This document shows positions 1-55,650 of a stretch of DNA of 64,000 bases, piece by piece. Both the position numbers and the translations under genes were made by a program. The stretch spans positions 4,707-68,706 of the forward strand of contig JBBDKM010000062.1 in NCBI GenBank assembly GCA_040879385.1, written 5' to 3'. This DNA comes from Thermoanaerobaculia bacterium. Its GTDB lineage: Bacteria > Acidobacteriota > Thermoanaerobaculia > UBA5066 > Gp7-AA6. Every line of letters starts with the position of its first letter. Position 1 is the first letter of the stretch. The notes under the pieces were generated by a model. The model ran no database searches and was not told where the DNA came from. It was given only the letters and a program-made list of their open reading frames with translations.

Positions 1-1300
1 CGCCCTCGGCCGCGGCCAGGTGGCCGATGGAATAGGACATCGGGACCTTGTCGATGACTTCCCAGGTGCCGAGCTTCCACTTCGCGATCGCGCTGTCGAC
101 GAAGAGCGAGGTGTAGCACTCGCCATTCAGGCCGAACTGCGTGTGGAGCGGACCCAGCCCCACCGGGACCTCGGCGTCCTTGACCGACTCGTACTTCAGG
201 ATCGGAATGCCGTCCTCGTCTCCCGTGAAGTCCTTGTTGCGGATCGCGGTCTGGATCTTCTCGAAGTTGAAGACGGTCGTCACGCCCTGGAGCTTGCCCG
301 AGCCGACGATGTATTTGCCGTCGGGTGAGACGTCGACGCCGTGCGGCGACTTGCCGCAGGGGATCAGGTAGACGAGGCCCGGGACTTTCTTCGGGTCGAT
401 GACCCGGACGCCGCCGATCAGGTCCCCCTTGCCCTCGGCGACGGCCTTCTCGACCGCCCGCCAGTCCACCGCCGCGATGTAGTCGCGGTCACGCTGCGAA
501 GCCGTGACCTCGAGCTTTCCGGTAGCGCGTTCGGAGTTGTAGCAGCTCCAGAACATCCATCCGTCCGAGGCCTTCTTGCCGGCGTCGCCCAGATCCCAGT
601 CGAATGGTGGCGTCATGATCTCCCAGCCGAGCGACATCTCGCCCGACCTCGGATCGATCTTGATACCGACGAGGACACCCTTGTATTTGGTGGCGTAGTC
701 TTCGATCCCGGCGGCCGTGCCTTTCGGAATCGGGATCGAAAAACGAGAGGCCATCATCGAGTACTCGGTGTTGGGCGTGACGAAGGCCGAGCCGTGGTTA
801 CCCGAGAGGTTGGCGATCGGGCCGAGGATCTGCTTGGTCTTGAAGTCGCGCAGATCCACCCGCGCGACACGGCCGTTCATGTCGTTGACGAAGAGCCAGC
901 GTCCGTCGTAGTCGCCGTTGGTCTCCGAAAGCGACGGATGATGGACATCGCCCCAGGTCAGGTTGCCGAGCATCGCCTTCGACTCGTCGTCGAAGCCGTA
1001 GCCGGTGGCCGGGTAGGGCGTGTAGACCGGGATCGTCGAGAGGTGCCGCATGGAAGGAATTCCGTACACGTAAACGTTTCCGGAGTGGCCTCCGGAAGCG
1101 AACATGTAGTACTCGTCGAGGTCTCCGGGCGCTACGTAGACCTTCCCGGCCGCGACGGCCATGTCGGATGCTCCGGCCGGGCCTCCCTTCTTCGCCCCGG
1201 CCTTGGGCGCGCTCGGCGCGCATCGGCCGGCGAGCGCGATCAGGATCGCGAAGACCGCGGCCGCGCCCAGGGTGATGAACTTCTTCGAGGGACTGCTCAT
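1..1300 (-). CDS. nosZ: Nitrous oxide reductase, clade II (Sec-type); 3' end beyond window edge
   Basis: Not in the ORF track. My translation from the ATG at 1300 (RBS GGAGG) gives MSSPSKKFITLG...VYVAPGDLDEYYMFASGGHSGNVYVYGIPSMRHLSTIPV...WGDVHHPSLSETNGDYDGRWLFVND, typical of clade II NosZ. No twin-arginine signal. Confidence 0.95.
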   Translation of the reverse strand, partial: MSSPSKKFITLGAAAVFAILIALAGRCAPSAPKAGAKKGGPAGASDMAVAAGKVYVAPGDLDEYYMFASGGHSGNVYVYGIPSMRHLSTIPVYTPYPATGYGFDDESKAMLGNLTWGDVHHPSLSETNGDYDGRWLFVNDMNGRVARVDLRDFKTKQILGPIANLSGNHGSAFVTPNTEYSMMASRFSIPIPKGTAAGIEDYATKYKGVLVGIKIDPRSGEMSLGWEIMTPPFDWDLGDAGKKASDGWMFWSCYNSERATGKLEVTASQRDRDYIAAVDWRAVEKAVAEGKGDLIGGVRVIDPKKVPGLVYLIPCGKSPHGVDVSPDGKYIVGSGKLQGVTTVFNFEKIQTAIRNKDFTGDEDGIPILKYESVKDAEVPVGLGPLHTQFGLNGECYTSLFVDSAIAKWKLGTWEVIDKVPMSYSIGHLAAAEG

Positions 1301-1311
1301 GGAATCCTCCT

Positions 1312-2550
1312 TCAATGTCCTCCGGCCTCACCGGCCGGCGTTATCGAACCTTGTGCCTTCTGCTTCTGGTGTTCGGCGAACGCCTCTCGCAGCTTCTGGA
1401 CGGCAATCGCCTTCTCCTGAGGGGACAGGATGATCTGGCGCGACAGAACGACGGCCATCGTTCCGGTGGGCTCGCGCAGGAAGTCGTCGACCGTCCGGCC
1501 GAAGCGGGCCTGCGTGTCCTCGACGGCCGTCGAGAGATCGGGGCCGATCTGCGCGGGGCTCTTGACGCCGAGCGCCTGCACGGAGTGGCACACGAAGCAC
1601 CCCGTCTTGACGAACCAGGCGCCCGGCCCCGTCTTCATGCGCTGTTCCTCGACGACCTCCTCGGGCGTCTGGGGATCCGTGCGCGGCAGCCCCGGGCGGT
1701 AGTCGGCGGGCACCGGCGCGCGGCGCCAGGAGAGGGCAAGCATGGAAAGCGCCTGAGCCTCCTTGGTCGTCAGGTGGAAGTTGGGCATGACCGTGTCGGG
1801 CACCAGCGCCCGGGGGTCCTTGAAATGCGCGACGTGCCAGGCAAAGGAGGTCTTCTGGCCGGAGAGACGGCCATACTCGTACTGTTCGGGCGCCTTGTCG
1901 CCGACCCGCGTGAGATCGGGGCCGATCGTTCCGCCGCGCCCGTTGATGACGTGGCAGGCCCGGCATCCCTTTTCCTTGACGAGGTTTTTGGCGAGGTTGA
2001 TCTGGTCGGCGCCCTTGGTCTCCCGGTCGTAACGGTGGCAGACGTTGCAGTTCATCTGCATCAAGGCCTTCTTGTCGGCCGCCAGGGAATAGGCTTCCCC
2101 GAGCGCGGCGCCGAGAACCGGCTCCTCCCAGTGCTCGACGGGGCCGTGGGCGGCCTCGACGTCGATCGCCCAGCCCTGGCCGCCGTGGCAGGAGGTGCAG
2201 CCGAATTCTTCGATCGGGTGGTTCTCGAGCGGCTCGGCCGGATGCGTCTTGAACGGGTTCTCGGCGTTCTCGAAGCCCTTCCAGAGGGAGGCCTGGTGGC
2301 ACGTGACGCAGCGGTCGGCCCGCCGCATCTCCGGGATCCAGATCTGCTGGACGCCGGCCGGGATGCCCTTCGCCTTCTCGGTTCCGAACTTCTCGGCGAC
2401 CTGGCTTTGGAACGCCCACTGGTAGTAGCGCCAGTCGTGCCTGCGGTCGCTCCAGGCGAAGAGCAGCGTCGAGACGACGAGCAGGACGCCGACGATCGCC
2501 AGAACCGGCCGGTCCTTCCTGGGAAACGGGGAGTCGGTTCGCTTTTCCAT
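1312..2550 (-). CDS. Membrane-anchored pentaheme cytochrome c (c subunit of Rieske/cyt b complex)
   Basis: N-terminal TM helix; CVTCH, CTSCH, CNVCH, CRACH, CFVCH; adjacent to cyt b and Rieske genes. Confidence 0.88.
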   Translation of the reverse strand: MEKRTDSPFPRKDRPVLAIVGVLLVVSTLLFAWSDRRHDWRYYQWAFQSQVAEKFGTEKAKGIPAGVQQIWIPEMRRADRCVTCHQASLWKGFENAENPFKTHPAEPLENHPIEEFGCTSCHGGQGWAIDVEAAHGPVEHWEEPVLGAALGEAYSLAADKKALMQMNCNVCHRYDRETKGADQINLAKNLVKEKGCRACHVINGRGGTIGPDLTRVGDKAPEQYEYGRLSGQKTSFAWHVAHFKDPRALVPDTVMPNFHLTTKEAQALSMLALSWRRAPVPADYRPGLPRTDPQTPEEVVEEQRMKTGPGAWFVKTGCFVCHSVQALGVKSPAQIGPDLSTAVEDTQARFGRTVDDFLREPTGTMAVVLSRQIILSPQEKAIAVQKLREAFAEHQKQKAQGSITPAGEAGGH

Positions 2551-2551
2551 T

Positions 2552-3889
2552 TCAGATCCTCGACGGCAGCTCGGGCCACGGCTGCCACGGCCAGTAGAAG
2601 TGCCAGTAGGGGCCGCGCAGGAAGGTGCCGATGATCGTCAGGGCGACAACCGCGGCGACGAGCAGCAGAAAGACGAGGTTCTGTTTCCGGCGGCTCCCGG
2701 CGAACCAGACGCCCGCCGCGCCGCCGGGGCTCTTGTCGAGCCACGGCCATGCGGTGAGGAGCGCCAGCAGGGCCGCCGGCAGCAGCACGCCGCCGAGAAA
2801 GGCGCCGTTGACGATGAAGGACCCGATGCGGATCGTCGTGTCCGTGACGATCTCCTGGAGCCAGAGGAAGTACCAGGGCGCCTTGGCCGGGTTGGGGGTG
2901 ATGAGCGGATTGGCCGGCTCCTCCAGAGGCGAGCGCACGAAGACCGCGAGGACTCCCACGAGCGCAATCGTGCCGAGCACCACGATGGCGGCCCTCCTGG
3001 TCAGGTCCGGGACGGAGTTGACCGTCGCGCCCTGCGCCTCGAGCGTGGAAGCGCGGACCTGCGGAGATGTCCCTCGCGCCACCCCGAGGAGCGTGTAGGT
3101 CTTGGTCTTCGACGCCGGGACTTCGGTCTTCTCGGAGGCGAGCCTGGCGGCGTCGGCCCTGGCGAGGCCGCCATCCTTGCGCATGCGCCACATGTGGTAC
3201 GCGAAGAGGAAGCCGATGATCATCGGGAGAAAGAGGACGTGGAGGACGTAGAAGCGGATCAAGGTCAACTGCTCGATCTCCCGGCCGCCGATCAGGAGCT
3301 CGCGGATGGCCGGGCCGACGAAGGGGACGGAAGAGGCAATGTTGGTGCCGACGGTGACGGCCCAGTAGGCGAGCTGATCCCACGGCAGAAGGTAACCGGT
3401 GAAGGAGAGGAAGAGCGTCAGGATGAGCATCGCGACGCCGATCACCCAGTTCCACTCGCGCTTCTGGTTCTGTCCCGTCCCGTTCTTGTAGGCGCCGGTC
3501 AGAAACACGCGCACCAGATGGAGAAACACCGCGGCGACCATCAGGTGCGCCGAGACCCGGTGCACCGCGCGGATCCAGGACCCGAACGTGATGACGTACT
3601 CGATGTCCTTGACCGAGGCGTAGGCGCGCTCGACCGACGGGATGTAAAGGAAGAGCAGCGGCAGCCCCGAGACGACGAGGAGCAAGAGGAGAGCCGCCGA
3701 GGCCGTCCCGAGCCAGAAGGAGTAACTCCAGGAGAGCGAAGCCTTGTAGCTCTTGGCCGGGAACCAGTGCAGCAGGAAGTTCGACACGATCGCGTCGCCC
3801 GCCTGGCGGTCGGAGGCCGGGCGGAAGCTCCACCAGCGTGTCGGGTGAACTCCCGGGGCAGACGGTTTCGGTTCGCGTCCCGTGATCAT
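2552..3889 (-). CDS. Cytochrome b of a Rieske/cytochrome b complex (fused b6 + subunit IV type)
   Basis: IRAVHRVSAHLMV and FTGYLLPWDQLAYWAVTVG motifs, RFYVLH, PAKAPWYF (PEWY-equivalent). Confidence 0.93.
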   Translation of the reverse strand: MITGREPKPSAPGVHPTRWWSFRPASDRQAGDAIVSNFLLHWFPAKSYKASLSWSYSFWLGTASAALLLLLVVSGLPLLFLYIPSVERAYASVKDIEYVITFGSWIRAVHRVSAHLMVAAVFLHLVRVFLTGAYKNGTGQNQKREWNWVIGVAMLILTLFLSFTGYLLPWDQLAYWAVTVGTNIASSVPFVGPAIRELLIGGREIEQLTLIRFYVLHVLFLPMIIGFLFAYHMWRMRKDGGLARADAARLASEKTEVPASKTKTYTLLGVARGTSPQVRASTLEAQGATVNSVPDLTRRAAIVVLGTIALVGVLAVFVRSPLEEPANPLITPNPAKAPWYFLWLQEIVTDTTIRIGSFIVNGAFLGGVLLPAALLALLTAWPWLDKSPGGAAGVWFAGSRRKQNLVFLLLVAAVVALTIIGTFLRGPYWHFYWPWQPWPELPSRI

Positions 3890-3899
3890 GCAATCCCCC

Positions 3900-4400
3900 T
3901 CAAGCCACAGTCAGCCGGAAGTCGCGCTCGACGGGGCGCGCCAGGTCGACGACGAGCTGGCCGTCCTCGGGCGAGAACGAGAGGTGATACCAGGCAAGCG
4001 GCTTGGGGGCCGGCCCCGATACGTTCGTGCCGTCGCCGTTGTACTTCGAACCGTGGCACGGGCAGAGAAACCGGTGGGTGAGCCGCAACGGCTTGCCGTC
4101 GGCGGCCGTCGTTTCGATCTGGGAGAGAGCTTCTGCGCGCACCGTGCAGCCCAGATGGGTGCACACGGCTGAGACCGCGTGAAACGTGTTTCCATCTCGA
4201 AACACGTAGAGTCGCTCGTCGGGAAGAAACTTCAAGCCGTCCGGGAAGTCGTTCGGCATCCCGAGCTTGACCGTCGTCGGCGCGTCATAAGAGACGTTCG
4301 GAACGAGGGACCGCATCGAGGCGACCGTCTGAGCGCCCAGCGCCGCGACACCGCTTCCGATCCCGAGCTTGAGGAGGAATTCCCGCCGGTTCCTGGCCAT
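3900..4400 (-). CDS. Rieske [2Fe-2S] protein with Tat signal
   Basis: MARNRREFL Tat motif; CTHLGC and CPCHGS boxes; start reassigned to the ATG at 4400. Confidence 0.93.
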   Translation of the reverse strand: MARNRREFLLKLGIGSGVAALGAQTVASMRSLVPNVSYDAPTTVKLGMPNDFPDGLKFLPDERLYVFRDGNTFHAVSAVCTHLGCTVRAEALSQIETTAADGKPLRLTHRFLCPCHGSKYNGDGTNVSGPAPKPLAWYHLSFSPEDGQLVVDLARPVERDFRLTVA

Positions 4401-4414
4401 CGCGTCTGACTCCC

Positions 4415-6358
4415 TTACCTCGCCGCCGCGGCGAATCGTTCGGTGATCGAAAACCGCTCCATCGTCATGGCGTCCGTCGGACAGCGGATCGCGCAGAGCC
4501 CGCAGCGGATGCAGCGGGCGTCGTCCTTGACCATCGCCGAGAGCGGCAGGCCATCGCCCTCGGCCCGCGCCGCCAGGGCGGCGCGCTCCGCCTCGGGGAG
4601 CTCCAGCTCCTCGAAAGGGACGAGCGCGAGACAGTACTCGGGACAGATGTCCACGCATCGGTTGCAGAGCACGCACTTTTCGGGGTCGTAGATCGTCTGG
4701 ACATGGCAGATCAGGCAGCGCGCCGCTTGGCGGCGGGCTTCGGCGTCTTCGTAGCCCGTCTCGACCTCGGCGATCCCGGTGCGCCGTCCGACGTCGAGCG
4801 TCGGAGGGGCCTCACGGTCGAGGACTTCGAAGCCGGCGATCATGCGGTAGTCGGCCGTCGGGAGCTTCTCGATCTCGAGGTGAGCCTCGAGGCGCGCGGC
4901 CTCGCGCGAGAGAAACTCGTGGATGGAGCGGGCCGCGCGCTTCCCGTTGGCGACGGCCTCGATCAGATTGCGCGGGCCGAAGGCCACGTCACCGCCGGCA
5001 AAGACGCCCGGAGCCGACGTGGCCAGGGTGACGGGATCGACCTGGATCGTGCCGCCGGGTTTCAAAGCCACGCGGTCGGCTTCCTCGAGGAACGAGAGAT
5101 CCGGCTGCTGGCCAATCGCGAGGATGCAGGCGTCCGCCGGGATCGTGGTGAGATCGGCCTCGTCGTAGCTCGGAGCGAAGCGGCCGTTTTCGTCGAAGAC
5201 CGAGACGACGCGCCGCAGCTCGACGGCCTCGAGCTTCCCGTTGCCGAGAAATCGATTGGGGCCGCGTCGCGGGACGAACACGACTCCCTCCTTCTTCGCC
5301 TCCTCGAACTCCTCGTGCCCCTGGGTGGTCCGCAGCACGGGCATCTCCCCGAAGCTCTCGAGCGAGACGATCGTGACCTCGGCGGCGCCTCCGCGGATCG
5401 CCACCCGCGCCGAGTCGAGCGCTTCCTTCATGCGCGCGTCTTCTTCGGCGGAGGCGGCGAGGCGGTCCGCGTCCCCCTCGCGCCCAACGCGCAGGGCGGT
5501 TCGCGCGGCGTCGAAGGCGACGAAGCCGCCGCCGATGACGACGACCCGCCGTCCGAGGTCCACGCGGTAGCCGCGGTTGACGTTGAGGAGGTAGTCGATG
5601 GCTTTGACGACGCCGTCCTTCTCCACGCCTGGCACCTGCAGATCACGGCCTCGCGAAACTCCGACCGACAGGAAGACCGACTCGAAGCCCTGCCGGCGGA
5701 GCTCGGCCAGGCCAAAGCTCTCCGACAGCGGCGTCTTCAGCCTCAGCGTCACTCCGAGCGAGAGGATCTTGTCGATCTCGGCCTGGATGAGTGAGCGGGG
5801 AAGCCGGTACTCGGGGATCCCGAAGCGCATCATGCCGCCCGGCTCCTCGGAGGCCTCGAAGACCGTGACCTGGTAGCCAAGGAGCGCCAGGTCGTGCGCT
5901 GCGGAAAGGCCGGCGGGGCCCGAACCGATGACGGCGACCTTCCGCTTCGCGAGGAGCCCCGCCGGCGCAGACGCGGTGCGAGAAAGCGGGTAGACCGGCA
6001 GATGTCCGGCGTAGCGGTTTCCCTCGGTGACGAGCCGCTCGCGCAGGACGTCCTGCGTCGCCGGCCGCACGGACTCGGCGCCGTACTTTTCAGTCACGAA
6101 GCGCTTCAAGGCGCGAATCGTGATCGGCGCGTCGATCGAGCCGCGGCGACACGCGTCCTCGCAGGGCGCGGCGCAAACGCGTCCGCAGACCGAAGCGAAG
6201 GGGTTGGGAGCGCGGGCCACGAGGAAGGCCTCCTCGTCCCGCCCCTCGGCGATGAGCTGGACGTATCGACCCGCGTCGGTTGCGACCGGGCAGCCCATCT
6301 GGCACTTGACCTGGGCCTTCCAGTGCGCGAGGTCGGGCAGACGTGTGGGGATCGGCAT
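4415..6358 (-). CDS. GltD/NfnB-like NAD(P)-dependent FAD oxidoreductase with C-terminal 2x[4Fe-4S] domain
   Basis: CQMGCP...CGRVCAAPCEDAC Fe-S domain; GSGPAG and IGGG Rossmann motifs; C-terminal CVLCNRCVDICP and CIRCGLCAIRCP; start MPIPTRLP at 6358. Confidence 0.9.
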   Translation of the reverse strand: MPIPTRLPDLAHWKAQVKCQMGCPVATDAGRYVQLIAEGRDEEAFLVARAPNPFASVCGRVCAAPCEDACRRGSIDAPITIRALKRFVTEKYGAESVRPATQDVLRERLVTEGNRYAGHLPVYPLSRTASAPAGLLAKRKVAVIGSGPAGLSAAHDLALLGYQVTVFEASEEPGGMMRFGIPEYRLPRSLIQAEIDKILSLGVTLRLKTPLSESFGLAELRRQGFESVFLSVGVSRGRDLQVPGVEKDGVVKAIDYLLNVNRGYRVDLGRRVVVIGGGFVAFDAARTALRVGREGDADRLAASAEEDARMKEALDSARVAIRGGAAEVTIVSLESFGEMPVLRTTQGHEEFEEAKKEGVVFVPRRGPNRFLGNGKLEAVELRRVVSVFDENGRFAPSYDEADLTTIPADACILAIGQQPDLSFLEEADRVALKPGGTIQVDPVTLATSAPGVFAGGDVAFGPRNLIEAVANGKRAARSIHEFLSREAARLEAHLEIEKLPTADYRMIAGFEVLDREAPPTLDVGRRTGIAEVETGYEDAEARRQAARCLICHVQTIYDPEKCVLCNRCVDICPEYCLALVPFEELELPEAERAALAARAEGDGLPLSAMVKDDARCIRCGLCAIRCPTDAMTMERFSITERFAAAAR

Positions 6359-6360
6359 TC

Positions 6361-6597
6361 TCAGTCCAGGCGGACGAGGTCCCCGGCGCCCGCGCGGTCG
6401 GCCGCCCGTCGGGTCTCCTCGGTGCGGAAGCGGTAGTGCCCGCCGGGCGTCCGGACCGCCTTCAGCGCTCCCGTTCGCGCCCAGCGGGTCACCGTGGAAG
6501 CCGAAACTCCGAAGAGCCGGGCGACCTCGGTGCGGGAGAGAAACTCGGGCCCGATCGAAACCCGTGATGGATCGCTCGTTCTTCCGCGTGCGGTCAT
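6361..6597 (-). CDS. BldC/excisionase-like MerR-type HTH DNA-binding protein
   Basis: FLSRTEVARLFGVSASTVTRWARTGALKAVRTPGGHYRF matches the BldC-family pattern. Confidence 0.85.
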   Translation of the reverse strand: MTARGRTSDPSRVSIGPEFLSRTEVARLFGVSASTVTRWARTGALKAVRTPGGHYRFRTEETRRAADRAGAGDLVRLD

Positions 6598-6640
6598 GGC
6601 TATCTACCCCCAAAAATCTCCCGGCGCGACAGCCGGACCT

Positions 6641-6818
6641 ATGACGCAGGTCATGCGCTCGATCGTTTTGCTCGGTTTCGTCTTCTTGAGCGTTTTGCGC
6701 CGTGCCGCGACTCTTTTAGCGCCCTGCAAGCGGTCGGACCTGATGCGAACGAATCAAATTTGCGGTCTTGTCGCCTGAGTGATTTGCGTCATGCGCGATG
6801 AGGAGACGGACCGGTAGC
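6641..6818. repeat. Repeated ~170-bp promoter module, copy 1 (others at ~10639-10809 and 13607-13786)
   Basis: Near-identical to 10650-10808 and similar to 13607-13760. Contains ATGACGCAGGTCAT (6641-6654), TGATGCGAACGAATCA (6741-6756) and GTGATTTGCGTCAT (6779-6792). Confidence 0.9.
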
Positions 6819-7217
6819 GAGCCAATCGAGGCGACCAAGCGGGGCACCGACCGGATCGTCGCGGGGGGAGCGTTTCCGACGGTCTGCATCTTCCGGCCGA
6901 CGATCGGCGGTGAGCTCGAAAGCGCGCCGCCTCCCGATCCGGGCGCGATGCGGGAAGTGTTCGCCCACCTCTACGAGGCGTGCCGCGAGGCGGGGCTTCC
7001 CATCGGCATTCTTCCAATCGAGGTTTCTCTGGTGGTCCACCCGGAAGAGGCGGCGGGCCTCGTCCGGCCGAGCCTCGCATCACGAATCTACGAGTGGAAC
7101 CTCGCGGTGCTGCGCACGCTTACCCGGCCATGCGTGGCTTGGAAGTTGATGCCCTGCGGGAGCACGCTCTCGGCCGAGGTTCTCCGCTCCCGGCTCGGAA
7201 CATCTGTGTCCCGAGTT
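6819..7217 (+). pseudogene. Truncated third copy of the radical SAM gene (3' third only)
   Basis: EPIEATKRGTDRIVAGGAFPTVCIFRPTIG...VAWKLMP matches the C-terminus of 10817..12088. The 5' part is deleted directly after the promoter and the stop is mutated (TGA to CGA). Confidence 0.9.
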
Positions 7218-7250
7218 AGAGCCAGACGCGGCGGCTCCGACCTCTCTTCC

Positions 7251-9611
7251 TCAGAAGACGTAACTCAGATACACCGTCCCGACGTTGACGGTGTAGGAGC
7301 CGTAGGTTGCGTCGAGGTAGTACGCGCGCCGCACGTCCACCAGGTCTTGCGGCACTCGGTCGAACATGTAGGGAACCATGACGTCGGTCATGAAGTCCGA
7401 GAGCTGGAAGTTCTCGTACCAGTAACGGACCCCGACCGTGAGCGCCTTCGTGACCGCGTACGAGAGCTTGACCCGCAGCGTGTAAAGATTGTCGGTGATC
7501 TCCGGCCAGGGGTAAGCGATCGCGGTGAAGAGTTTGGTGGGCAACCCGTTCGGGTTGCTCGCGTCGAAGTTTGCATGGCCCTGAGTCGCCGAATACCGGA
7601 GGTCGTAGTGGAAGCCGTTTCCGAAGTCCCCGAACATGTTGACACCGTACGCGTTGATGACGTTGGCGGTATTGTCGTTCCAGGCGTTGGAGGGCAGCCA
7701 GTTCGTCCCGCCGATGTTGTCGTCCTTGGCGATCGACTTCATGAACTCGTCGAGGGACTCCCGCGCCCAGAAGGCGCCGATGCCGAAGACCGGCAGCGGG
7801 GCAAACGTCACATCCAGACCGCCGGAGAGGTACTCGTTGCTCTGCAGCCCGTAGGGCGACTCGGGGAAGTCGGTTTGAACGTACGAGACGTTGCCGCCCA
7901 GGGTCAGCGAAGGCAGCGGCGACCACGTGAACTGAGCGTCGTAGGTGTCCTGGACGCGGGCCGCGACGTCGAAGTCGCGCAGAAGCGCGAACTCGAGGCC
8001 CGGATCGTAGATCGAGGCGTCCCGGGAGGTGTATGCGTAGGAAACGCGGGCGAACAAACTCCGGGCCATGCGCAAACGTGCCCCGATCGTCCAGATGTCC
8101 TCGTGGTTCTCGTTCACGGTCCGATGCGTGCGATCCCAGTCGTTCGACGCGTAGGAGGCGTCGATGTCGAGAATCGGAAGCGGCCGCACGATGGCCTCCA
8201 GACCCCAGCGCGTGCGCGTGTAGTCCTTGGGGACGTTTTCGATCGGCTCGCCCTCGATGTTCGTCCTCCAGCTCGACTCCGATCCGGCCGCGTAGCCGGG
8301 GAAGAGGATCTCGCGGCTCTCGTCGTCGTAGTCGTAGCGGCGGAAGCGCGCCGTCGCCGTGACGAAGTCGACTGGCCGCGAGCTGAGGACGACGTTCTGC
8401 GAGTTGATGCTGACCTTGCCGTCGAGACTCGAGACAGGCAGGTTGGCCGGGTTCGTCACGTCGAAGCCTGCCGGCACGGAGATCGCCGAATTCAGGGTGT
8501 AGGGAGCGAAAGCCTCGTTCTGCTCCCAGTTCGACCACGAGAAGCTCCCCGAGAGGCTCGTGCGAAGGGGCAGCCGGACCGCTCCGGAGAAAGTGAACTC
8601 CTCCGTCTGGTTGTCGGGCGGAAGAGGCGAGATTCCCTCCGCGAAGCGCTGACGGAAGGCCGTGGAGGCGAGGTTCGTGATGCGGAACGGATTGTCGAAC
8701 ACCAGGTACGGCACGTCGTTGTCGAACGTGGAGAGATCGGCTCTGCCCTCGACCACGAAGGACGGTCCCGAGAAGTCCATCGAAACGCCGTAAAGCTTGG
8801 TCGAATAGCTGACCGGTTCGGGCATCTCCAGGTCCGGCGTCCGGAAGTAGTCTCCGGTGTGGGCGGTGCCCGAGCCGCCGATCGCCTGCCGGTCGTAACT
8901 TCCCGCCGAGGTGACTTTCGTGCCGTCGCGCTGCTCGTCGCTGAAATAGCCCCCAAGGTTCCAGTTCGGCAGGATCGCGATGTTGGCCGCACCCCCACCG
9001 GTGTTGCGCTGGACGTCCAGCACGGTTTCGGGGAATGTGCTCGCGTAGAGGAAGCCGAGCGGCGGAATCAGCGGGTTGTCCGCGCCGGCCTGGCCGTTCG
9101 AGGTGTCGTCGAGCGCCTCGAAGGCGGCCTGCACCGGATCCGGTACACGCAATTCGCCTGGGGCTGGCGAAGAGAACGCGGGCCGGGCGTGAACGGAATA
9201 GAGATGCGGCGTCTGGTCGTAGAAACCGATTGCGGACACGGGCCCCAGGCGCGCCTTGAGCGTGTAGCGCGCGTCGATTCGGCCGACGTTCCAGGCGCGC
9301 GCGTCAAACATCCGGCTGCCGTCGGCGTTGGTGTCGGCAAAACGAAGCGAGTCGACGAAGCCGCCCGACGGAACGGTCCGGTACTCCTCGAACTTGGCGC
9401 TGTCGCCATCGACGTCGACGAACTGGAAGCCTCCCAAGATGCCGTTGTTGTCGAACGTGAAGGTATCAACCTGCCAGGGCGAGGGCGTCTGAACGGGCTC
9501 AGGCGTCGTCGGCTCAGGCTCTGTCGCTTCCTGCGCGGCCAGAGGGCCACCGAACGGGATGAGCGCGGCGAGGGAAACCAGGCCGACCAGGCGGAAGATG
9601 TTCTTTTTCAT
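7251..9611 (-). CDS. MtrB/PioB-family outer-membrane beta-barrel
   Basis: Signal peptide, DSAKFEEYR and PPDNQ motifs, alternating beta-strand pattern, terminal Phe; directly downstream of a decaheme gene. Confidence 0.9.
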   Translation of the reverse strand: MKKNIFRLVGLVSLAALIPFGGPLAAQEATEPEPTTPEPVQTPSPWQVDTFTFDNNGILGGFQFVDVDGDSAKFEEYRTVPSGGFVDSLRFADTNADGSRMFDARAWNVGRIDARYTLKARLGPVSAIGFYDQTPHLYSVHARPAFSSPAPGELRVPDPVQAAFEALDDTSNGQAGADNPLIPPLGFLYASTFPETVLDVQRNTGGGAANIAILPNWNLGGYFSDEQRDGTKVTSAGSYDRQAIGGSGTAHTGDYFRTPDLEMPEPVSYSTKLYGVSMDFSGPSFVVEGRADLSTFDNDVPYLVFDNPFRITNLASTAFRQRFAEGISPLPPDNQTEEFTFSGAVRLPLRTSLSGSFSWSNWEQNEAFAPYTLNSAISVPAGFDVTNPANLPVSSLDGKVSINSQNVVLSSRPVDFVTATARFRRYDYDDESREILFPGYAAGSESSWRTNIEGEPIENVPKDYTRTRWGLEAIVRPLPILDIDASYASNDWDRTHRTVNENHEDIWTIGARLRMARSLFARVSYAYTSRDASIYDPGLEFALLRDFDVAARVQDTYDAQFTWSPLPSLTLGGNVSYVQTDFPESPYGLQSNEYLSGGLDVTFAPLPVFGIGAFWARESLDEFMKSIAKDDNIGGTNWLPSNAWNDNTANVINAYGVNMFGDFGNGFHYDLRYSATQGHANFDASNPNGLPTKLFTAIAYPWPEITDNLYTLRVKLSYAVTKALTVGVRYWYENFQLSDFMTDVMVPYMFDRVPQDLVDVRRAYYLDATYGSYTVNVGTVYLSYVF

Positions 9612-9623: not shown

Positions 9624-10517
9624 CTATCGCTGGAAGATGGGACCCGACGGGCTGTTGGACCCGTGGATCTTGGGGTGGCAGTTCATGCAGGCGCGGCTGA
9701 ACACCCAGGGCTCGTTCGCCTTTGACGGGATCGTCTGATGGCGCCCCTGCATGTGGCACTGCTGGCACAGGCGCGAGGTCTGCGCCACGAGGAGCGACTC
9801 GAAGTTGGAGGAGTGCGGATTGTGGCAGTTCAGACAGTTCTCCTTGACGGGTGAGTGCTCCCAGAGGTGCGGCCCGCGCTTCTCCGCGTGGCACGTGTAG
9901 CAGAGCTCGTTGACGGAATTGCGCCGGACGAGGCTCTCCGTCACGCTGCCGTGCGGGTTGTGGCAGCTCGCGCAGTCCATCTTTCCCTCGAGGAGCGGAT
10001 GTCGCGAGCGCGCGTTGAGCGCCCGCGCCAGGTTCGTGTGACAGGTCAGGCAGAGCTCCGTGGCCTTGGGCCTGGCCAGCAGCGCCTTGCTCGAGGGTGC
10101 GGCGCCGTGCATCGAGTGACAAGACGTGCAGCCTGCCCGGCCCTCCGCGTGCGCGCTGCCTGCCCAGTGGATCTGTGTTTTGTCCTGACGGTGGCAGCTC
10201 AGGCACTTCTCGGAGGCTTCGAGGGGCTTGAGAGACTTGAACGAAACGATGTTCTCCTTGGTCGGGTTTTCCGCATGTTGCGCGCCCGGCCCGTGGCAGG
10301 ACTCACACTCGGCGCTGTTTTGTTTGTATGGCTTCTTGCCGCCGGTCAAGACGTGTGGGTTCTTCGCGAACCTCTTCCCGACGTCCTCATGACAGGTGAT
10401 GCAGGTTTCGTTTCCCACCGTGTCGCCCGCTTTTTCCTGGCCCTGGGCAGACAGGGCGAGAGGCAACAACAGCAGAACGGCCCCTCCAAGAAGGGTCCCC
10501 AGTGTCCGCCTTGGCAT
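9624..10517 (-). CDS. DmsE/MtrA/MtoA-family periplasmic decaheme cytochrome c
   Basis: 10 CxxCH motifs; HAEKRGP..WEHSPV and IHGSN signatures; AAGGAG RBS before the ATG at 10517. Confidence 0.95.
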   Translation of the reverse strand: MPRRTLGTLLGGAVLLLLPLALSAQGQEKAGDTVGNETCITCHEDVGKRFAKNPHVLTGGKKPYKQNSAECESCHGPGAQHAENPTKENIVSFKSLKPLEASEKCLSCHRQDKTQIHWAGSAHAEGRAGCTSCHSMHGAAPSSKALLARPKATELCLTCHTNLARALNARSRHPLLEGKMDCASCHNPHGSVTESLVRRNSVNELCYTCHAEKRGPHLWEHSPVKENCLNCHNPHSSNFESLLVAQTSRLCQQCHMQGRHQTIPSKANEPWVFSRACMNCHPKIHGSNSPSGPIFQR

Positions 10518-10558
10518 GCCCACTCTCCTTGAGCTTCGAGGTTGACCTGCGGCGATAG

Positions 10559-10631
10559 TCGGCCGAAGCGGGCGAAGTGTCAAGATGCGGCCATGAGCAA
10601 GACGGACACGGCGGGAGCAGAACGGGCCGGG
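10559..10631 (+). pseudogene. Remnant of the VKOR gene start (duplicate of ~12174-12246)
   Basis: gtgtcaagatgcggccATGagcaagacggacacggcgggagcagaacgggccggg versus gtgtcaagatccggccATGagcaagccgggcacggcggaagcggaacgggccggg. Confidence 0.8.
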
Positions 10632-10638
10632 TCCGGTA

Positions 10639-10809
10639 GGTCAGGGCTTGATCGTTTTGCTCCGTTTCGTCTTCTTGAACGTTTTGCGCCGTGCTGCGAC
10701 TCTTTTAGCGCCCTGCATACGGTCGGACCTGATGCGAACGAATCAAATTTGCGGTCTTGTCGCCTGAGTGATTTGCGTCATGCGCGATGGGGAGACGGAC
10801 CGGTAGCCT
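10639..10809. promoter_or_regulatory. Promoter module copy 2; Crp/Fnr-like box 10768-10781, -10-like TAGCCT 10804-10809, 16-bp palindrome 10730-10745
   Basis: Direct repeat of the 6641 module; the box centre lies about 42 bp upstream of the radical SAM ATG. Confidence 0.75.
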
Positions 10810-10816
10810 GTGATCG

Positions 10817-12088
10817 ATGTTTTCTCCCGTCGAGCTCGAGATCGAACTCTTCTGCCGCGGGATGCGGCTGGATGCGAGCTCCACGGTCGACGAAGACGGG
10901 CGGCGGATCTCGAGGACGCGGGCAGGCCTCGGCTCCGGCCTGGAGCTCGTGATTCCCGCTCCGCGCAAGCCTATCTGGGTCAACGTGCCCGTCGTGGAGC
11001 GCTTCGCCGAGACGTCTCCTTTCGAGCTCGTGAAGGGGCCGGCGGGCTACGAGGTCGTCGACGAACGAACGAGGGAGGCCTACCCCGTCGCCATTCCCGC
11101 GGAGCCGGGGTGGTACTCGCGCGAAACCTCGTCCGGAATCCCGATGAACCGGATCGGCGTCCTGCAGGGCAACTACCTCGGGGTCTACGTCTCCAACGCC
11201 TGCCTCTACTGGGCCCGGAACCAGGCCTGCAAATTTTGCACGACCGGAAAGAACGTCGGCGTCAACGAACAGGCGCGCAAGAAAGTCGAAGACGTCGTCG
11301 AGGTCGCGCTCGCGGCGCGCGACGAGTCCGGCTCCGTCTTTACGCACCTGAACACGGGCTATCACTACGAGGAGGTCGACCGCCTCGAGCCCATCCACGG
11401 TTTGCGGCAGTGCGAGCCGTTCGTCCGCGCGCTGCGCAGGGAGGTCGGCGGGTTCATCGGCGTCCAGGCGCACGCGGTGCCGCGGCGGAAGTTCTCCGAG
11501 TACGACGCGCTCGTCGACGCCGGGACCGATCACTTTTCCTTCTGCTATGAGTTCGAGGACCCGCAGTGGTTCGAGCGCATCTGCCCCGGCAAAGCCGCCA
11601 CACTCGGCCAGGAGGGCTTCTTCGAGGCGATGGAGTACACGTCGAAACGGCTCGGCCGGGGGAGGGTCTCCGGCGAGATCATCGCCGGCCTCGAGCCGGT
11701 CGAAGCGACGATGCGAGGCGTCGATCGGATCGTCGCGGCGGGGGCGTTTCCCACCGTCTGCATTTTTCGCCCGACGATCGGCAGCGAGCTCGAGAACGCG
11801 CCGCCTCCCGATCCGGGAGCCATGCGCGAAGTCTTCGCCCACCTGTACGAAGCCTGCCGGGACGCCGGGCTTCCGATCGGGATCTTGCCGATCGAAGTCT
11901 CGCTCGTCGTGCAGCCCGAGGAGGCGGCGGATCTTGTCGCCCGGAGCCTCGCCTCGCGCCTTTACGAGTCGAAGCTCTCGGCCCTGCGCAAGGTCGCCCG
12001 GCCGTACGTGGCGTGGAAGTTGATGCCCCGCCCGAGCACGCTCTCGGCCGAGGGTCGCCGCTCCCGGCAAAGAACATCCGCGTCCTGA
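10817..12088 (+). CDS. Radical SAM protein, MSMEG_0568/NitD-like
   Basis: CLYWARNQACKFC (CX8CX2C); RTRAGLGSG, WY..TSSGIP, KKVEDVVEV and GAFPTVCIFRP resemble the MSMEG_0568 family. Confidence 0.8.
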   Translation: MFSPVELEIELFCRGMRLDASSTVDEDGRRISRTRAGLGSGLELVIPAPRKPIWVNVPVVERFAETSPFELVKGPAGYEVVDERTREAYPVAIPAEPGWYSRETSSGIPMNRIGVLQGNYLGVYVSNACLYWARNQACKFCTTGKNVGVNEQARKKVEDVVEVALAARDESGSVFTHLNTGYHYEEVDRLEPIHGLRQCEPFVRALRREVGGFIGVQAHAVPRRKFSEYDALVDAGTDHFSFCYEFEDPQWFERICPGKAATLGQEGFFEAMEYTSKRLGRGRVSGEIIAGLEPVEATMRGVDRIVAAGAFPTVCIFRPTIGSELENAPPPDPGAMREVFAHLYEACRDAGLPIGILPIEVSLVVQPEEAADLVARSLASRLYESKLSALRKVARPYVAWKLMPRPSTLSAEGRRSRQRTSAS

Positions 12089-13606: not shown

Positions 13607-13786
13607 ATGACGCAGGTCATGCGCTCGATCGTTCTGCGCCGTTTCGTCGTCTTGAGCGTCTTGCACCGCCTGGACGGATTTCTAGCGCAGCGGCGAGGGC
13701 CCGGAATGAGTCAAACGCATCAATTTCGCGGCATCGCGGTCCTGCTGATCTGCGTCATGCGCGCTCGGGTGGCGGCCCTGTAGTCT
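13607..13786. promoter_or_regulatory. Promoter module copy 3; boxes 13607-13620, 13707-13722, 13745-13758; -10-like TAGTCT 13781-13786
   Basis: Diverged repeat of the 6641 module with the palindromes conserved. Confidence 0.75.
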
Positions 13787-15739: not shown

Positions 15740-17563
15740 TTATCGCACCGGCAGCGTCGAAGAGAAGGCGGGCGGCGCCGATCGCGAGGCCGCCTTCGGG
15801 GGTGCGGGCCGGGCGCGCATCGTGCGGACCAGGTTGAACATGTAGAGGACCAGGGCGAGCACGACGGGAATTCCCATGTAGGAGCCGACCTGGTACAAGG
15901 CGGGATGGAACGCCGCCGGGTACTGCAAGAGCCGCAGCGCCACCCCGAAGAGCAGGAGCGAGTAGGTCAGGTAGGCCAGGCGGGGCGACCAGAGGGTCTT
16001 GCCCGAGAAGACAGGCAGGATCCGGAAGCTCATCCCGACGATCAGAAGCGTCAGGAACCCGATCGTGAAGACGTGGCGTCCGGCATCCGCCCACCAGAGG
16101 TTCTGAGCGGGCAACCGGGTCGCGCGGGACAGGATCACGGCGGACAGCTCCAGCAGAGACCAGAGGCCGAGGCAGCCGAACGCGAGGCGGATCGCGACCG
16201 TCGGGGCTCCGGGAGTGCGCATCATCGGAAGGGTCGCGCGCCGCCAGAGAAACCCGTTGCCGGCGAGATAGACGGCCGCCGACAGAGCCGCCAGAGCGAG
16301 ACCTCCGTCGCGCAGGGCGAGCGCGCCCCGGTCCGGGAGACCGGGCAGCCAGGAGCCCAGGAACAGGAATACGCCCCCCGCTTGCGCGGCGAGCGCGATC
16401 TCGCTTGTTCCCTTCACGGCAGGCCCCACGCCAAGAAAGAGGGACACGATCCGGTGGCCGAAACCGTAGATCCAGGCGAGGAGAAACCCGTAGAGCGTCG
16501 CGAAATAGAAGGTCTCGTTGAGCGCGGCAGGAAGGACCGTGTCGATGTTCCCGGCGAGCCAGAGCCCCTGGCCGGCCACGAGCGCCATGGCGAGCGCGAA
16601 GTAGACCGTGCCCGCGCGCACGAACCGCAGGAGCGGATCCTTGCGGTCGTATTTTCCTTCCCGCACGGCGGCGAGGAGGCCGAAGACGAACCGGATGAAG
16701 AGAACCGCCGAGGCGGCCTCCATGCCGGCGGACAGCAGCGAGAGCAGGCGCCCGGCCGGATGGAAGCCGAACGGCTGGCTCGCGTTGCGGAGGAGAACCC
16801 CGAGAAACATCAGCCAGAAGCTCGCGCGAACCGCGCGTCCGGGCCGGAAGCCGCCGACCCCCAGTATCCGGGGAAGGGCGTGATAGGCGATTCCCATGAG
16901 GAAGAGCGCCGCGAAACCGAGAACCTGCGTGTGCCCGTGAATCTGGCGGTGGTCGATCGGAACCTCGCCTCCCGCCGCGATGCGCAGGAGGTTGATCATG
17001 CCCATCGTGGCGCCGAGAGTGAGCGTCAGGAAGAGCGACCCCACGATGAAATGCGGCGAAAAGGGGCTGGCCGCCTTCTCGGCGGGAGGGGGAGCGGCGG
17101 CGACGTCATGAATCGCCACCGACCGGACGTCCCGCAGGAACTCCTCCAGCGGCAGCCGGTGCACCGTCGCAAACCACGCCAGCGGCTCGTCGGGCCCGTC
17201 CTCGCCGCCACAGTCGGCGAGGCCGTAGCGCTCGAGCACCGGCCCGGTCGCCGGGAAACGGCGGCGCAGCTCCCGAATCGACATCGTCGGAGGCACGAGG
17301 TTGTGCGCCTCGGCCGCGCCGTACGCCGATTCCAGGTCCTGGATCACGTCGGGAAGCGCGAGGCCCTTGGCCCGGCAGGCGTCTTCGAGAGGATGCTCCC
17401 CGCCGCAGCAGGTATCGAGCCCGTGAGCGGCCAGGGCGGAGCCGAGCTGCGGGTAACGGGCGAGCAGCTCTTTGACCGGAAGCTTCGGATCGAACCGTGT
17501 CGTCGTAATCATTGGCTCTGGAGAGTGGAGCGAATCGCTCGTTTCCGCCATGATGGGGATCAT
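15740..17563 (-). CDS. DUF542/ScdA_N-repeat + NnrS-like polytopic membrane protein
   Basis: GLDTCCGG and GLADCGG small domains, followed by many TM helices with IHGHTQVLGF and DAGRHVFTIGF His motifs; start uncertain. Confidence 0.75.
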   Translation of the reverse strand: MIPIMAETSDSLHSPEPMITTTRFDPKLPVKELLARYPQLGSALAAHGLDTCCGGEHPLEDACRAKGLALPDVIQDLESAYGAAEAHNLVPPTMSIRELRRRFPATGPVLERYGLADCGGEDGPDEPLAWFATVHRLPLEEFLRDVRSVAIHDVAAAPPPAEKAASPFSPHFIVGSLFLTLTLGATMGMINLLRIAAGGEVPIDHRQIHGHTQVLGFAALFLMGIAYHALPRILGVGGFRPGRAVRASFWLMFLGVLLRNASQPFGFHPAGRLLSLLSAGMEAASAVLFIRFVFGLLAAVREGKYDRKDPLLRFVRAGTVYFALAMALVAGQGLWLAGNIDTVLPAALNETFYFATLYGFLLAWIYGFGHRIVSLFLGVGPAVKGTSEIALAAQAGGVFLFLGSWLPGLPDRGALALRDGGLALAALSAAVYLAGNGFLWRRATLPMMRTPGAPTVAIRLAFGCLGLWSLLELSAVILSRATRLPAQNLWWADAGRHVFTIGFLTLLIVGMSFRILPVFSGKTLWSPRLAYLTYSLLLFGVALRLLQYPAAFHPALYQVGSYMGIPVVLALVLYMFNLVRTMRARPAPPKAASRSAPPAFSSTLPVR

Positions 17564-24799: not shown

Positions 24800-24857
24800 G
24801 CTGGGACCTCCTTGGCGTTCTTCTTCGGGAGTACCGGCGGCGGACGCGTTGGCCGGT

Positions 24858-30210: not shown

Positions 30211-30252
30211 ACTCCGACGTCCTCGAGACTCGCGGCGGTCACTGCGACCGCC

Positions 30253-34929: not shown

Positions 34930-35357
34930 GTGCCACGCGTTTGATCTCGAAGGACGATGCCCCAACGCTATGACGCAAATCATAGGGAGGTTGCCAGTTC
35001 GTCAACACACTCGGCGGAAAGGAGGGTGACACGGTCTTTAATGTCGCGCTGCCGATCGCCGGTATGCAGCTCCCGCAGATGATGAAGAAGCCCGGGATCG
35101 TCAGCGTCAAGTGCGACGCGGGCCACACATGGGCCTATTTGCCGGAGGCCCGCCCGGAGGCCGGGCCGTTCTTGCCCGGCTCTCCCTGCCCCCTCTGCGG
35201 CTTCCCGGTCGCGCGGGTCGTCGTGAAGTGGGAAAGCGCGGAGCAACGGCGGCTCACGCCCCGAATCCGCGAAGACTTTCCGGAATGGCGGCCGGAGCTC
35301 GGAGCCTGTGAGCGTTGCCTCGAGGGATATGCCGTTCGGGAGGGGACATGGTTGTGA
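34930..35357 (+). pseudogene. Deleted duplicate of the nxr operon leader: promoter, cupredoxin-like fragment and Zn-ribbon protein fragment
   Basis: 34930-35030 matches 48548-48645. GMQLPQMMKKPGIVSVKCDAGHTW matches the 48652 gene. PGSPCPLCGFP...CERC matches the 49388 gene. Confidence 0.88.
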
Positions 35358-54088: not shown

Positions 54089-54092
54089 CGCG

Positions 54093-55621: not shown

Positions 55622-55650
55622 CGCCATGACGCAACCCGACGCCCCGACCC

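Follow-up and report, generated by a model that had tools for sequence, protein, structure and literature searches.

We analyzed a 64,000-nt stretch of DNA from a Thermoanaerobaculia bacterium (G000:C62:4707-68706, that is, positions 4707 to 68706 of contig C62 of genome G000; hereafter 'the window'), which opens with part of an operon for reduction of nitrous oxide (N2O). The operon genes all lie on the minus strand and encode, in order of transcription, a helix-turn-helix (HTH) protein, an iron-sulfur (FeS) flavoprotein, a Rieske protein, a fused cytochrome b, a pentaheme cytochrome c, and the N2O reductase NosZ (Table 1; protein lengths in amino acids, aa). The four genes from flavoprotein to pentaheme cytochrome c, here called the module, and their relation to NosZ are the subject of this report. 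Successive genes are separated by gaps of 2, 14, 10, and 1 bp, and the pentaheme cytochrome c gene and nosZ either overlap (with a TTG start for nosZ) or are 11 bp apart (with an ATG start). An earlier, sequence-only reading of the window had reported six co-oriented genes with short gaps; the genes, their order, and the gaps are all confirmed, with the strand to be given as minus. The G+C content is 0.63-0.69 across window positions 1-7000, so that many spurious reading frames are open there, and terminator-like sites in positions 1-7400 are no more frequent than expected from shuffled sequences (4 found vs. 4.1 expected), with no excess interrupting the operon. The product of the first gene, the HTH protein, scores 62.5 bits against the BldC-like model NF033787, under its cut-off of 77.

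Table 1. Features of the nos operon and its upstream region, in order of transcription (positions are those of the window).
Feature	Position	Strand	Basis and remarks
14-bp palindrome ATGACGCAGGTCAT, candidate operator	6641..6654	.	44 nt upstream of HTH start codon
HTH protein, 78 aa, MerR/excisionase/BldC-like	6361..6597	-	PF12728 (E 3.6e-11) and MerR-type HTH; first gene
GltD/NfnB-type FeS-flavoprotein, 647 aa, cytoplasmic	4415..6358	-	Pfam Fer4_20, Pyr_redox_2, Fer4_7
Rieske [2Fe-2S] subunit, 166 aa, twin-arginine signal/anchor (RREFL)	3900..4400	-	PF00355
Long cytochrome b, b6 and subunit IV in one chain, 445 aa	2552..3889	-	PF00033 (Cytochrome_B) and PF00032 (Cytochrom_B_C)
Pentaheme cytochrome c, 412 aa, membrane-anchored, presumed NosZ donor	1312..2550	-	5 CxxCH; Cytochrom_C/FixO-like and multiheme Pfam matches
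Clade II nosZ, first 438 codons, start TTG 1315 or ATG 1300	1..1315	-	cut by first base of window; TIGR04246

The contig extends 4.7 kb ahead of the window, and on it the full nosZ gene (C62:4126-6021) encodes 631 aa. Against the model for Sec-dependent NosZ (TIGR04246; cut-off 625 bits), the whole protein scores 896.9 bits and the part within the window 592 bits; against the Tat-type model (TIGR04244), the score is 440.9 bits, under the cut-off of 625. NosZ contains no CxxCH heme motif. The genes that follow nosZ, with spacers of at most 5 bp or overlaps, are nosB-like, nosD (TIGR04247, 377.9 bits, cut-off 300), nosF (an ABC ATPase), nosL (PF05573, 24.2 bits, cut-off 24), and nosY (an ABC-2 permease that reaches the contig end). 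The nosB-like gene, named by position alone, begins 5 bp past nosZ and encodes a 216-aa membrane protein with ~4 hydrophobic segments that has no Pfam or NCBIfam match and yet is kept in 51/51 related loci. Among the 11 genes of the operon, to which the search was confined, none is NosR- or NosX-like. The NosZ model and the nosD/F/Y/L maturation genes fit a clade II (Sec-dependent) nos cluster, to which we assign the locus on these sequence matches. With nosG/H/C1/C2 and nosR all absent from it, the operon is a clade II nos operon of eleven genes, and the Rieske/cytochrome b complex is the sole candidate electron-donor system that it encodes.

The flavoprotein has an N-terminal FeS domain (Fer4_20), Rossmann domains for flavin adenine dinucleotide (FAD) and nicotinamide adenine dinucleotide, phosphorylated or not (NAD(P)) (Pyr_redox_2), and, C-terminally, a ferredoxin domain of the 2x[4Fe-4S] kind. 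The protein lacks hydrophobic segments, and the genome encodes a single copy of it. Its best relatives by sequence in the PDB are NfnA of NfnABC (9n5u, E 7e-75), the companion entries 9bov and 9bp5, which have an identical chain sequence (6e-70), and NfnI, NfnB, StnABC, and GltD, and its C-terminal domain matches polyferredoxin-like chains, for example subunit F of formylmethanofuran dehydrogenase. An AlphaFold2 model built from a 42-row alignment (mean predicted local distance difference test, pLDDT, 86.2; predicted template-modeling score, pTM, 0.87) has as top folds 9bov_A (Nfn-ABC of Caldicellulosiruptor saccharolyticus), 9n5u_A, and 8oh5_C (StnABC), followed by NfnI, NfnB, GltD, and dihydropyrimidine dehydrogenase. 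With NfnAB, NfnABC, StnABC, and GltD the flavoprotein shares fold, cofactor motifs, and Fer4_20, FAD, and NAD(P) domains, but it differs from them in having an extra C-terminal two-cluster ferredoxin domain, in having no NfnA/GltB-type partner gene, and in its genomic coupling to a membrane complex. Sixteen Cys residues are invariant in 42 homologues (42-100% identity): C19, 23, 58, 62, 66, 70, 548, 551, 562, 565, 568, 572, 616, 619, 622, and 626. Judged by number, these are enough for four predicted [4Fe-4S] clusters. The dinucleotide-fold motifs GxGxxG (residues 145-150) and GGG (276-278) are invariant in the same 42 homologues. Protein clusters available for the relatives in a cluster database carry only the generic name 'FAD-dependent oxidoreductase'. 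Of the distant representatives, one was traced to Myxococcota and one to Dehalococcoidia. One candidate for a fusion of flavoprotein and cytochrome b (P0122, 1069 aa) was rejected, its extra N-terminal part being TPR-like and not cytochrome b, and a complex prediction with two copies of cytochrome b residues 20-445 and one of flavoprotein residues 500-647 (score 0.22, mark 0.32) counts neither way.

Compared with the whole PDB, the Rieske protein has as its top two matches 9rk4 (E 1.6e-18) and 9rk3 (E 3.4e-17), which are Kuste4569 and Kustd1480, the Rieske subunits of the two complexes of anaerobic ammonium-oxidizing (anammox) bacteria that bear an NAD(P) oxidoreductase (Hauser et al., 2025, PMC12954380, Table 1). 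Its CTHLGC and CPCHGS motifs are invariant. In Rieske proteins of the nos-linked clade defined below, the second motif continues as CPCHGS-K/R-Y (CPCHGSKY in the window); relatives not linked to nos have Phe at the Tyr position, like Kustd1480. The Ser/Tyr pair has been linked to high potential (PMC12954380), and the Ser/Tyr signature suggests a high-potential Rieske center. The nos-linked clade alone has an insertion of ~17 residues between the two cluster-binding loops, absent from non-nos relatives and from a paralogue at C23 in the same genome, which could dock the pentaheme cytochrome c or NosZ.

The cytochrome b has seven hydrophobic segments and aligns best with b6. In the alignment with spinach b6, W59 stands in place of Cys35, the motif at this site is WLGT, not CxGG, and the heme cN site (CxGG) is not found. 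In 42 homologues H110, H124, H217, H232, H41, and PWY 338-340 are invariant, as are L60 and G61, with no Cys at the site, and the inner-side b6-like motif after the bN ligand (HMWRMRKDGG) is retained. These features match the signature given for clade G' of cytochromes b (WLGT, four His, P-WY; Ca. Kryptonia and Acidobacteria bacterium OLB17), as distinct from the CMGG and P-WY of anammox subfamily G (PMC5600118, supplementary file 3), and by this motif match we assign the cytochrome b provisionally to subfamily G, clade G'. The cytochrome b is ExtP/ExtQ-like by NCBIfam, but membership in the Geobacter ext families is not supported, the scores against the models for ExtP and ExtQ being 234 and 74.5 bits, under the cut-offs of 290 and 150. 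The pentaheme cytochrome c has one N-terminal hydrophobic segment and retains five CxxCH motifs in 63/63 near-full-length orthologues. Three more Rieske/cytochrome b loci are present in the genome (C23:154772-159605, C13:~10620-11814, and C79:~23667-24805), none with a flavoprotein gene. At the C23 locus, b6 is separate from a subunit IV of 361 aa, the CxGG motif is present (as WCAGG), and part of a 1025-aa open reading frame (ORF) matches the pentaheme cytochrome c.

To follow the module beyond the window, we scanned one genome per species for relatives of the flavoprotein, obtained 420, analyzed the best 80 (72-85% identical), and mapped the window proteins onto each locus, counting neighbors only at loci on contigs that reach far enough. 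Among these best 80 of 420, co-linear neighbors of the flavoprotein gene are the Rieske gene at 74/74 loci, the cytochrome b gene at 67/67, and the pentaheme cytochrome c gene at 62/62, followed by nosZ at 53/53, nosB at 51/51, nosD at 50/50, nosF at 50/50, nosL at 47/48, and nosY at 47/47; the HTH gene is upstream at only 17/76. Chance does not account for such an arrangement. The related loci come from Acidobacteriota (Thermoanaerobaculia, Vicinamibacteria, Holophagales, and Terriglobia) and, outside that phylum, from Anaeromyxobacteraceae, including the isolate Anaeromyxobacter sp. PSR-1 (L046), and from one Myxococcaceae and one Binatia metagenome-assembled genome (MAG).

We also approached the association from the side of nosZ. 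We sampled 401 Acidobacteriota genomes evenly, with G000 among them; a flavoprotein homologue (E<=1e-60) occurs in 90 and nosZ (E<=1e-40) in 42. Judged by the reported places, nosZ is preceded at a distance of ~5 kb by a flavoprotein gene of the same contig and orientation in 18/42, and those 18 genomes are exactly the ones with a NosZ at least 64% identical to the window NosZ. The remaining 24 nosZ genomes (NosZ at most 61% identical) have no adjacent flavoprotein gene; one of them, G263, has a 49% identical flavoprotein homologue on another contig. Of the 24 module-free nosZ loci, 12 were fetched, and none gave a tblastn match (E<=1e-3, query coverage of 25% or more) to the flavoprotein, Rieske protein, cytochrome b, or pentaheme cytochrome c, with only ten informative (at least 6 kb of upstream sequence, as against less than 2 kb for the other two). 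We conclude that, in this Acidobacteriota sample, nos clusters have all four genes or none. Among 61 Anaeromyxobacteraceae genomes, 17 have nosZ, and 17/17 also have a flavoprotein at least 74% identical to that of the window, adjoining nosZ on one contig in 15/17 and lying on another contig of a fragmented assembly in 2/17. The sequence-only reading had called for a survey of gene order in nos clusters, and conservation of the link to nosZ is borne out both by the 53/53 loci and by these two sets of nosZ genomes. At two nos-linked loci, L130 (G357:C2:1078600-1098500) and G345:C51, the flavoprotein gene matches in two pieces, for which frameshift, sequencing error, or decay are possible; in G357, HTH genes stand at both ends of the nos cluster.

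The module is not confined to nos clusters. Forty loci of ~20 kb each, picked by choice and not at random from 112 match rows over all identity tiers, show the flavoprotein tied to Rieske/cytochrome b INDEPENDENTLY of nos at 37/40 loci, at 41-100% identity and in several gene orders. Eight of the 40 are nos-linked (flavoprotein 53-79% identical to that of the window); 23 lack nosZ but keep the order of flavoprotein, Rieske, cytochrome b, and multiheme cytochrome c genes (41-51% identical), with b6 and subunit IV often encoded separately; and six have Rieske, cytochrome b, and multiheme cytochrome c genes and, ~3.5 kb farther on, a co-oriented flavoprotein gene. Of the others, one (L114) has a Rieske match only, and the two most distant flavoproteins (33% identical) stand alone. 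The association of the flavoprotein with cytochrome b, which the sequence-only reading had proposed, is in this way upheld at the genomic level.

A maximum-likelihood tree of 65 flavoproteins (the window protein, 25 of the first 80 loci, and 39 of the 40 fetched loci; 55 near-identical or truncated loci and L130, with its split gene, left out; the two stand-alone proteins serving as a very distant outgroup) places the 33 nos-linked flavoproteins in one clade (Shimodaira-Hasegawa-like approximate likelihood-ratio test, SH-aLRT, 100), nested among 30 proteins that are linked to Rieske/cytochrome b but not to nos. Rows from Anaeromyxobacteraceae, Myxococcaceae, and Binatia fall inside the acidobacterial nos clade. 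The tree comes from a quick search and has some long branches, and its deep order is unsure. By this nesting, the link between flavoprotein and Rieske/cytochrome b is, as far as the sequences can tell, older and wider than the link between flavoprotein and nosZ, and the nos-linked genes seem to have moved from phylum to phylum together, as one block.

The contexts of the non-nos loci were assigned by Pfam on five loci and counted by tblastn. Genes for a cbb3-type oxidase (ccoN, ccoO, and fixG-like) adjoin the module at seven non-nos loci. Seven have genes for an FeS subunit and a 1243-aa molybdoenzyme that belongs to the type II dimethyl sulfoxide (DMSO)-reductase family, and one more has a 921-aa molybdoenzyme. 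At 12, the module is preceded by a trio of genes, which encode a LuxR/PAS regulator, a 511-aa protein that weakly matches a (phosphate) porin, and a 193-aa CarboxypepD_reg protein. Three non-nos loci have none of the cbb3, molybdenum (Mo)-enzyme, or trio contexts. The cbb3 loci (L111, L112, L115, L117, L118, L119, and L108, in G191, G291, G016, G292, G139, G089, and G361) have ccoN, ccoO, fixG, and a P-type ATPase, and in 6/7 of these modules the flavoprotein gene comes after ccoNO. In the trio loci (L096, L099-L107, L109, and L110, a sister clade), a 600-950-aa multiheme cytochrome c follows, and no terminal reductase is evident. That sister modules stand beside O2- and Mo-enzyme-linked operons fits a device needing a strong acceptor. 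The sequence-only reading had the complex dedicated to N2O; the module as a family is not nos-specific, the nos form being one clade of it, with others beside cbb3 or Mo-enzyme genes.

Four sets of known systems resemble the module. The closest are the complexes Kuste4569-4574 and Kustd1480-1485 of the anammox bacterium Kuenenia stuttgartiensis, for which electron bifurcation was proposed by Kartal in 2013 (according to PMC12954380). In the account given there, Rieske potentials of +303 and +335 mV fit reduction of NAD(P)+, and the subunits co-migrate (PMC12954380). Like these complexes, the module comprises a Rieske protein, a b6-type cytochrome b, a subunit IV, a membrane-anchored multiheme cytochrome c, and a cytoplasmic NAD(P)/FAD oxidoreductase with four FeS sites; it has the P-WY quinol-site motif and four heme His; it would be coupled to a high-potential N-oxide reaction; and its nearest solved Rieske relatives are from anammox bacteria, the fold of its flavoprotein being nearest NfnABC. 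Unlike them, it has NosZ as terminal partner, where the anammox complexes have a hydroxylamine oxidoreductase (HAO)-like octaheme protein, five hemes rather than six or eight, a cytochrome b fused to subunit IV with WLGT rather than CMGG with the heme cN Cys, and the flavoprotein gene first in order, and its hosts are heterotrophic Acidobacteriota and Myxococcota. The anammox flavoproteins and cytochromes b are likened to those of the module by structure entries, motifs, and description rather than by direct alignment. The parallel drawn in the sequence-only reading is strengthened by the solved relatives: the best for the Rieske protein are Kuste4569 and Kustd1480, and the best fold for the flavoprotein is 9bov, whose companion entry 9bp5 is the homologue reported for Kuste4570 (PMC12954380).

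The second set is clade G' itself, whose genes are described as lying in 'large conserved operons ... of an unknown function', within a subfamily G whose cytochromes b are found together with large FeS oxidoreductases that bind NAD(P) (PMC5600118). The module shares with clade G', matched by motifs alone, the long cytochrome b, WLGT, the four His, P-WY, and a place in a large conserved operon; the content of those operons is unstated in the parts of that account available to us, whereas here it is a complete clade II nos cluster. The third set comprises clade II cluster maps, in which genes labeled 'Fe-S', 'S' (Rieske), 'cy-b', and 'cy-c' are drawn upstream of nosZ (He et al., 2024, PMC11096178, Fig. 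5 legend). These are probably the same genes as here, in Anaeromyxobacter-type clusters, and the cluster itself is therefore not newly seen. In the material from He et al. (2024) on which we draw, the first gene is labeled an iron-sulfur protein only, with no mention of its FAD/NAD(P) nature or of the anammox parallel. The fourth set is clade II nos of Wolinella, which the module resembles in the Sec-type NosZ, in nosB beside nosZ, and in electron supply by Rieske/cytochrome b, but from which it differs in the absence of nosG/H/C1/C2 and in having the Rieske/cytochrome b genes inside the operon, together with genes for the flavoprotein and the pentaheme cytochrome c. Clade II N2O respiration in Wolinella reportedly needs a Rieske/cytochrome bc complex, a result of 2017 that is credited to Hein. 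Similar clade II cluster maps are also said to have been published by Sanford and colleagues in 2012.

The host organisms of the module presumably use menaquinone. The potential of menaquinone is ~-70 mV, that of NAD(P) is -320 mV, and that of the N2O/N2 couple is ~+1.35 V. We propose that the module is an anammox-type Rieske/cytochrome b complex dedicated to NosZ that couples quinol bifurcation to reduction of NAD(P)+; to this statement as a whole, including the direction of electron flow, we give a probability of roughly 0.45. For the part of it that makes the flavoprotein a subunit of the complex feeding NosZ, our confidence is considerably greater, and we regard it as probable. What the sequence itself gives is the set of parts, the side of the membrane predicted for each, and a stable genomic tie of the parts to one another and to NosZ. 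In the proposed mechanism, one complex would oxidize menaquinol at the outer (Qo) site. One electron would pass through the Rieske center and the pentaheme cytochrome c to CuA of periplasmic NosZ and on to N2O; the other would cross the membrane through the two b hemes and enter the FeS wire of the flavoprotein, with its four clusters, to reach FAD and then NAD(P)+ rather than quinone. This would be quinol-based bifurcation powered by the very high N2O/N2 potential, as in the anammox proposal of Kartal et al. The downhill branch of ~1.4 V would pay many times over for the uphill branch of 0.25 V. Re-oxidation of the resulting NAD(P)H by complex I would, by our own arithmetic, approximately double proton movement per N2O (~4 added).

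The alternative that must be weighed most carefully is the same complex run in reverse, with the flavoprotein as an NAD(P)H dehydrogenase head that feeds heme bN or an inner quinone site, giving a non-pumping NAD(P)H/quinol:cytochrome c (NosZ) oxidoreductase. The sequence-only reading had allowed for either direction. The anatomy of the module would be the same, electron transfer from NAD(P)H to menaquinone is thermodynamically downhill by the established potentials, and the b6-like inner-side motif is kept; this direction is called conceivable in Hauser et al. (PMC12954380), who in the same account reject it for anammox complexes because it wastes energy. The same objection applies here, since reverse flow would waste energy that complex I conserves: the window genome has NuoH at three loci and NuoF at one, and, having complex I genes that include NuoF, it has no need of the module as a non-pumping entry for NADH. 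Reverse flow also leaves unexplained why the module is sited beside very high-potential enzymes (NosZ, cbb3 oxidase, and type II Mo-enzymes), and the Ser/Tyr Rieske protein suggests a high potential in menaquinone organisms, a pattern argued to favor a very low-potential b chain. We consider reverse flow a possibility to be taken seriously, although an unlikely one.

Two further accounts deserve consideration. The flavoprotein might be a soluble NAD(P)H:acceptor oxidoreductase, serving Nfn/GltD-like redox balancing or reduction of FeS proteins or ferredoxin, that is merely co-regulated with an ordinary Q-cycle complex that feeds NosZ. The absence of a membrane segment, the soluble enzymes to which the nearest solved relatives belong, and the public annotations of relatives (glutamate synthase beta-like, formate dehydrogenase beta, FAD-dependent oxidoreductase) all agree with this. 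However, the gene adjoins Rieske/cytochrome b genes at 37/40 loci, across four operon contexts and no fewer than two gene orders, which makes mere co-regulation unlikely; nos clusters carry the four genes or none; the flavoprotein is the sole homologue in the genome and its gene lies 14 bp from the Rieske gene; anammox homologues co-migrate with their Rieske/cytochrome b partners (PMC12954380, citing de Almeida 2016); and the same subunit view is taken for subfamily G (Dibrova 2017, PMC5600118). We judge a soluble role improbable. Alternatively, the module might substitute for NosR, with low-potential electrons from NAD(P)H passed outward to keep CuZ reduced and active and catalytic electrons supplied by quinol. 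Clade II clusters are without NosR, the membrane FeS-flavoprotein of clade I (PMC11409646), there is no nosR-like gene among the 11 genes here, and a cytoplasmic FeS-flavoprotein together with a transmembrane heme protein could in principle serve. Yet sister modules attach to cbb3 and Mo-enzyme operons, where there is no CuZ, and 24/42 clade II nosZ of Acidobacteriota have no module; we know of no precedent for outward electron flow through a Qo site. Operons that have no NosZ are served by the module too, which makes an activation role specific to NosZ unlikely, and of the accounts considered we hold this one the least probable, at a little under one chance in ten.

Several points weigh against bifurcation toward NAD(P)+. 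Downhill transfer from NAD(P)H to the b hemes or to quinone is, as a reading of the genes, equally compatible with the sequence, and physical association and co-transcription are themselves predictions from gene order. The heme cN Cys of anammox cytochromes b is absent, and the inner-side cofactor chain therefore differs from that in published anammox models. The anammox model has an N-terminal His of cytochrome b (His43/His62) as a possible ligand of an additional b heme at the dimer interface (PMC12954380). His41 of the cytochrome b of the window might bind such a heme, but a paralogue in the genome, one with no accompanying flavoprotein gene, has this His too, and for that reason we rejected it as specific evidence for an extra b heme. 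Close relatives have inherited or transferred the block as one unit, so that 53/53 is not 53 independent observations, and the neighbor counts speak for a stable block rather than for separate origins. The 24/42 Acidobacteriota nosZ without the module evidently manage without it. Finally, heterotrophs have a less obvious need of reverse electron flow to NAD(P)H than do autotrophic anammox bacteria.

What is already known comprises the anammox NAD(P)-oxidoreductase complexes, the bifurcation hypothesis, the co-occurrence in subfamily G, and the Rieske-type genes in clade II maps; what is new relative to anammox is NosZ as terminal enzyme, the fused cytochrome b without heme cN, and the different host biology. 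The open-access literature yielded no naming of an NAD(P)/FAD flavoprotein or of electron bifurcation in a nos cluster, with subscription papers and key reviews outside that search and prior mention there possible, and no statement that identifies clade G' operons with nos operons or makes reduction of N2O a possible driver of NAD(P)+ reduction. A Rieske/cytochrome b complex joined to an NAD(P) oxidoreductase is a proposed and unproven mode of energy coupling, argued so far only for anammox bacteria. To our knowledge, anammox bacteria are available neither in pure culture nor for genetic manipulation. The same design stands before clade II nosZ in isolates, for example Anaeromyxobacter sp. PSR-1, which makes the hypothesis testable in cultivable N2O reducers. 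The assignment gives a putative function to clade G' cytochrome b operons left as being of 'unknown function' by Dibrova et al., and acidobacterial operons linked to N2O, to O2, and to Mo-enzymes have the module in common. Biomass yields as much as 1.5-fold higher have been noted for clade II organisms, with differences in the electron-transport genes of nos clusters as a possible reason (Conthe et al., 2018, PMC5864245); if bifurcation occurs, recycling of NAD(P)H through complex I would be a mechanistic basis for the higher yields of some of them. A still broader statement, which we offer tentatively and think rather doubtful, is that N2O respiration of Anaeromyxobacter-type and many acidobacterial clade II reducers bifurcates quinol, that the module is an exchangeable 'bifurcating complex III' for NosZ, cbb3 oxidase, and periplasmic Mo-enzymes, and that recycling of NAD(P)H explains the yield.

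The palindrome upstream of the operon (Table 1) is conserved at 80% or more in 17 aligned upstream regions (the window and 16 related loci). The pattern ATGAY-N4-RTCAT occurs six times in the window, against 0.07 expected, at 6641-6654, 7378-7391, 13607-13620, 17550-17563, 34970-34983, and 48586-48599; one of the other sites is at the start of a gene for a ScdA_N and NnrS-like protein, and one is ahead of a Mo-enzyme cluster. By its form the palindrome looks like the box of a Crp/Fnr-type regulator, a candidate for control of an N-oxide/anaerobic regulon.

Several other genes of the window deserve mention. Just upstream of the nos operon is a gene for an MtrB/PioB-type outer-membrane porin (7251-9611, minus strand; PF11854, E 2e-85), beside which is a gene for an MtrA-like multiheme cytochrome (9624-10583, minus strand), with a second MtrA-like gene at ~29314-30246; the spacer of ~650 bp between porin gene and operon contains a possible divergent 151-aa ORF with no family match. 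The ScdA_N and NnrS-like gene (15740-17563, minus strand) encodes a 607-aa protein that joins ScdA_N (DUF542), the N-terminal domain of a di-iron repair protein, to an NnrS-like heme-copper membrane domain, and is of the nitric oxide (NO)-stress type. At 50642-57839 (plus strand) lies an enzyme of the type II DMSO-reductase family, with a 1148-aa alpha subunit, a beta subunit, and a gamma subunit that continues into c-type cytochrome domains. A gene for a CarboxypepD_reg protein precedes it, there is no flavoprotein-Rieske/cytochrome b module at this place, and the enzyme is 42% identical to the Mo-enzyme that adjoins flavoprotein modules in other Acidobacteriota.

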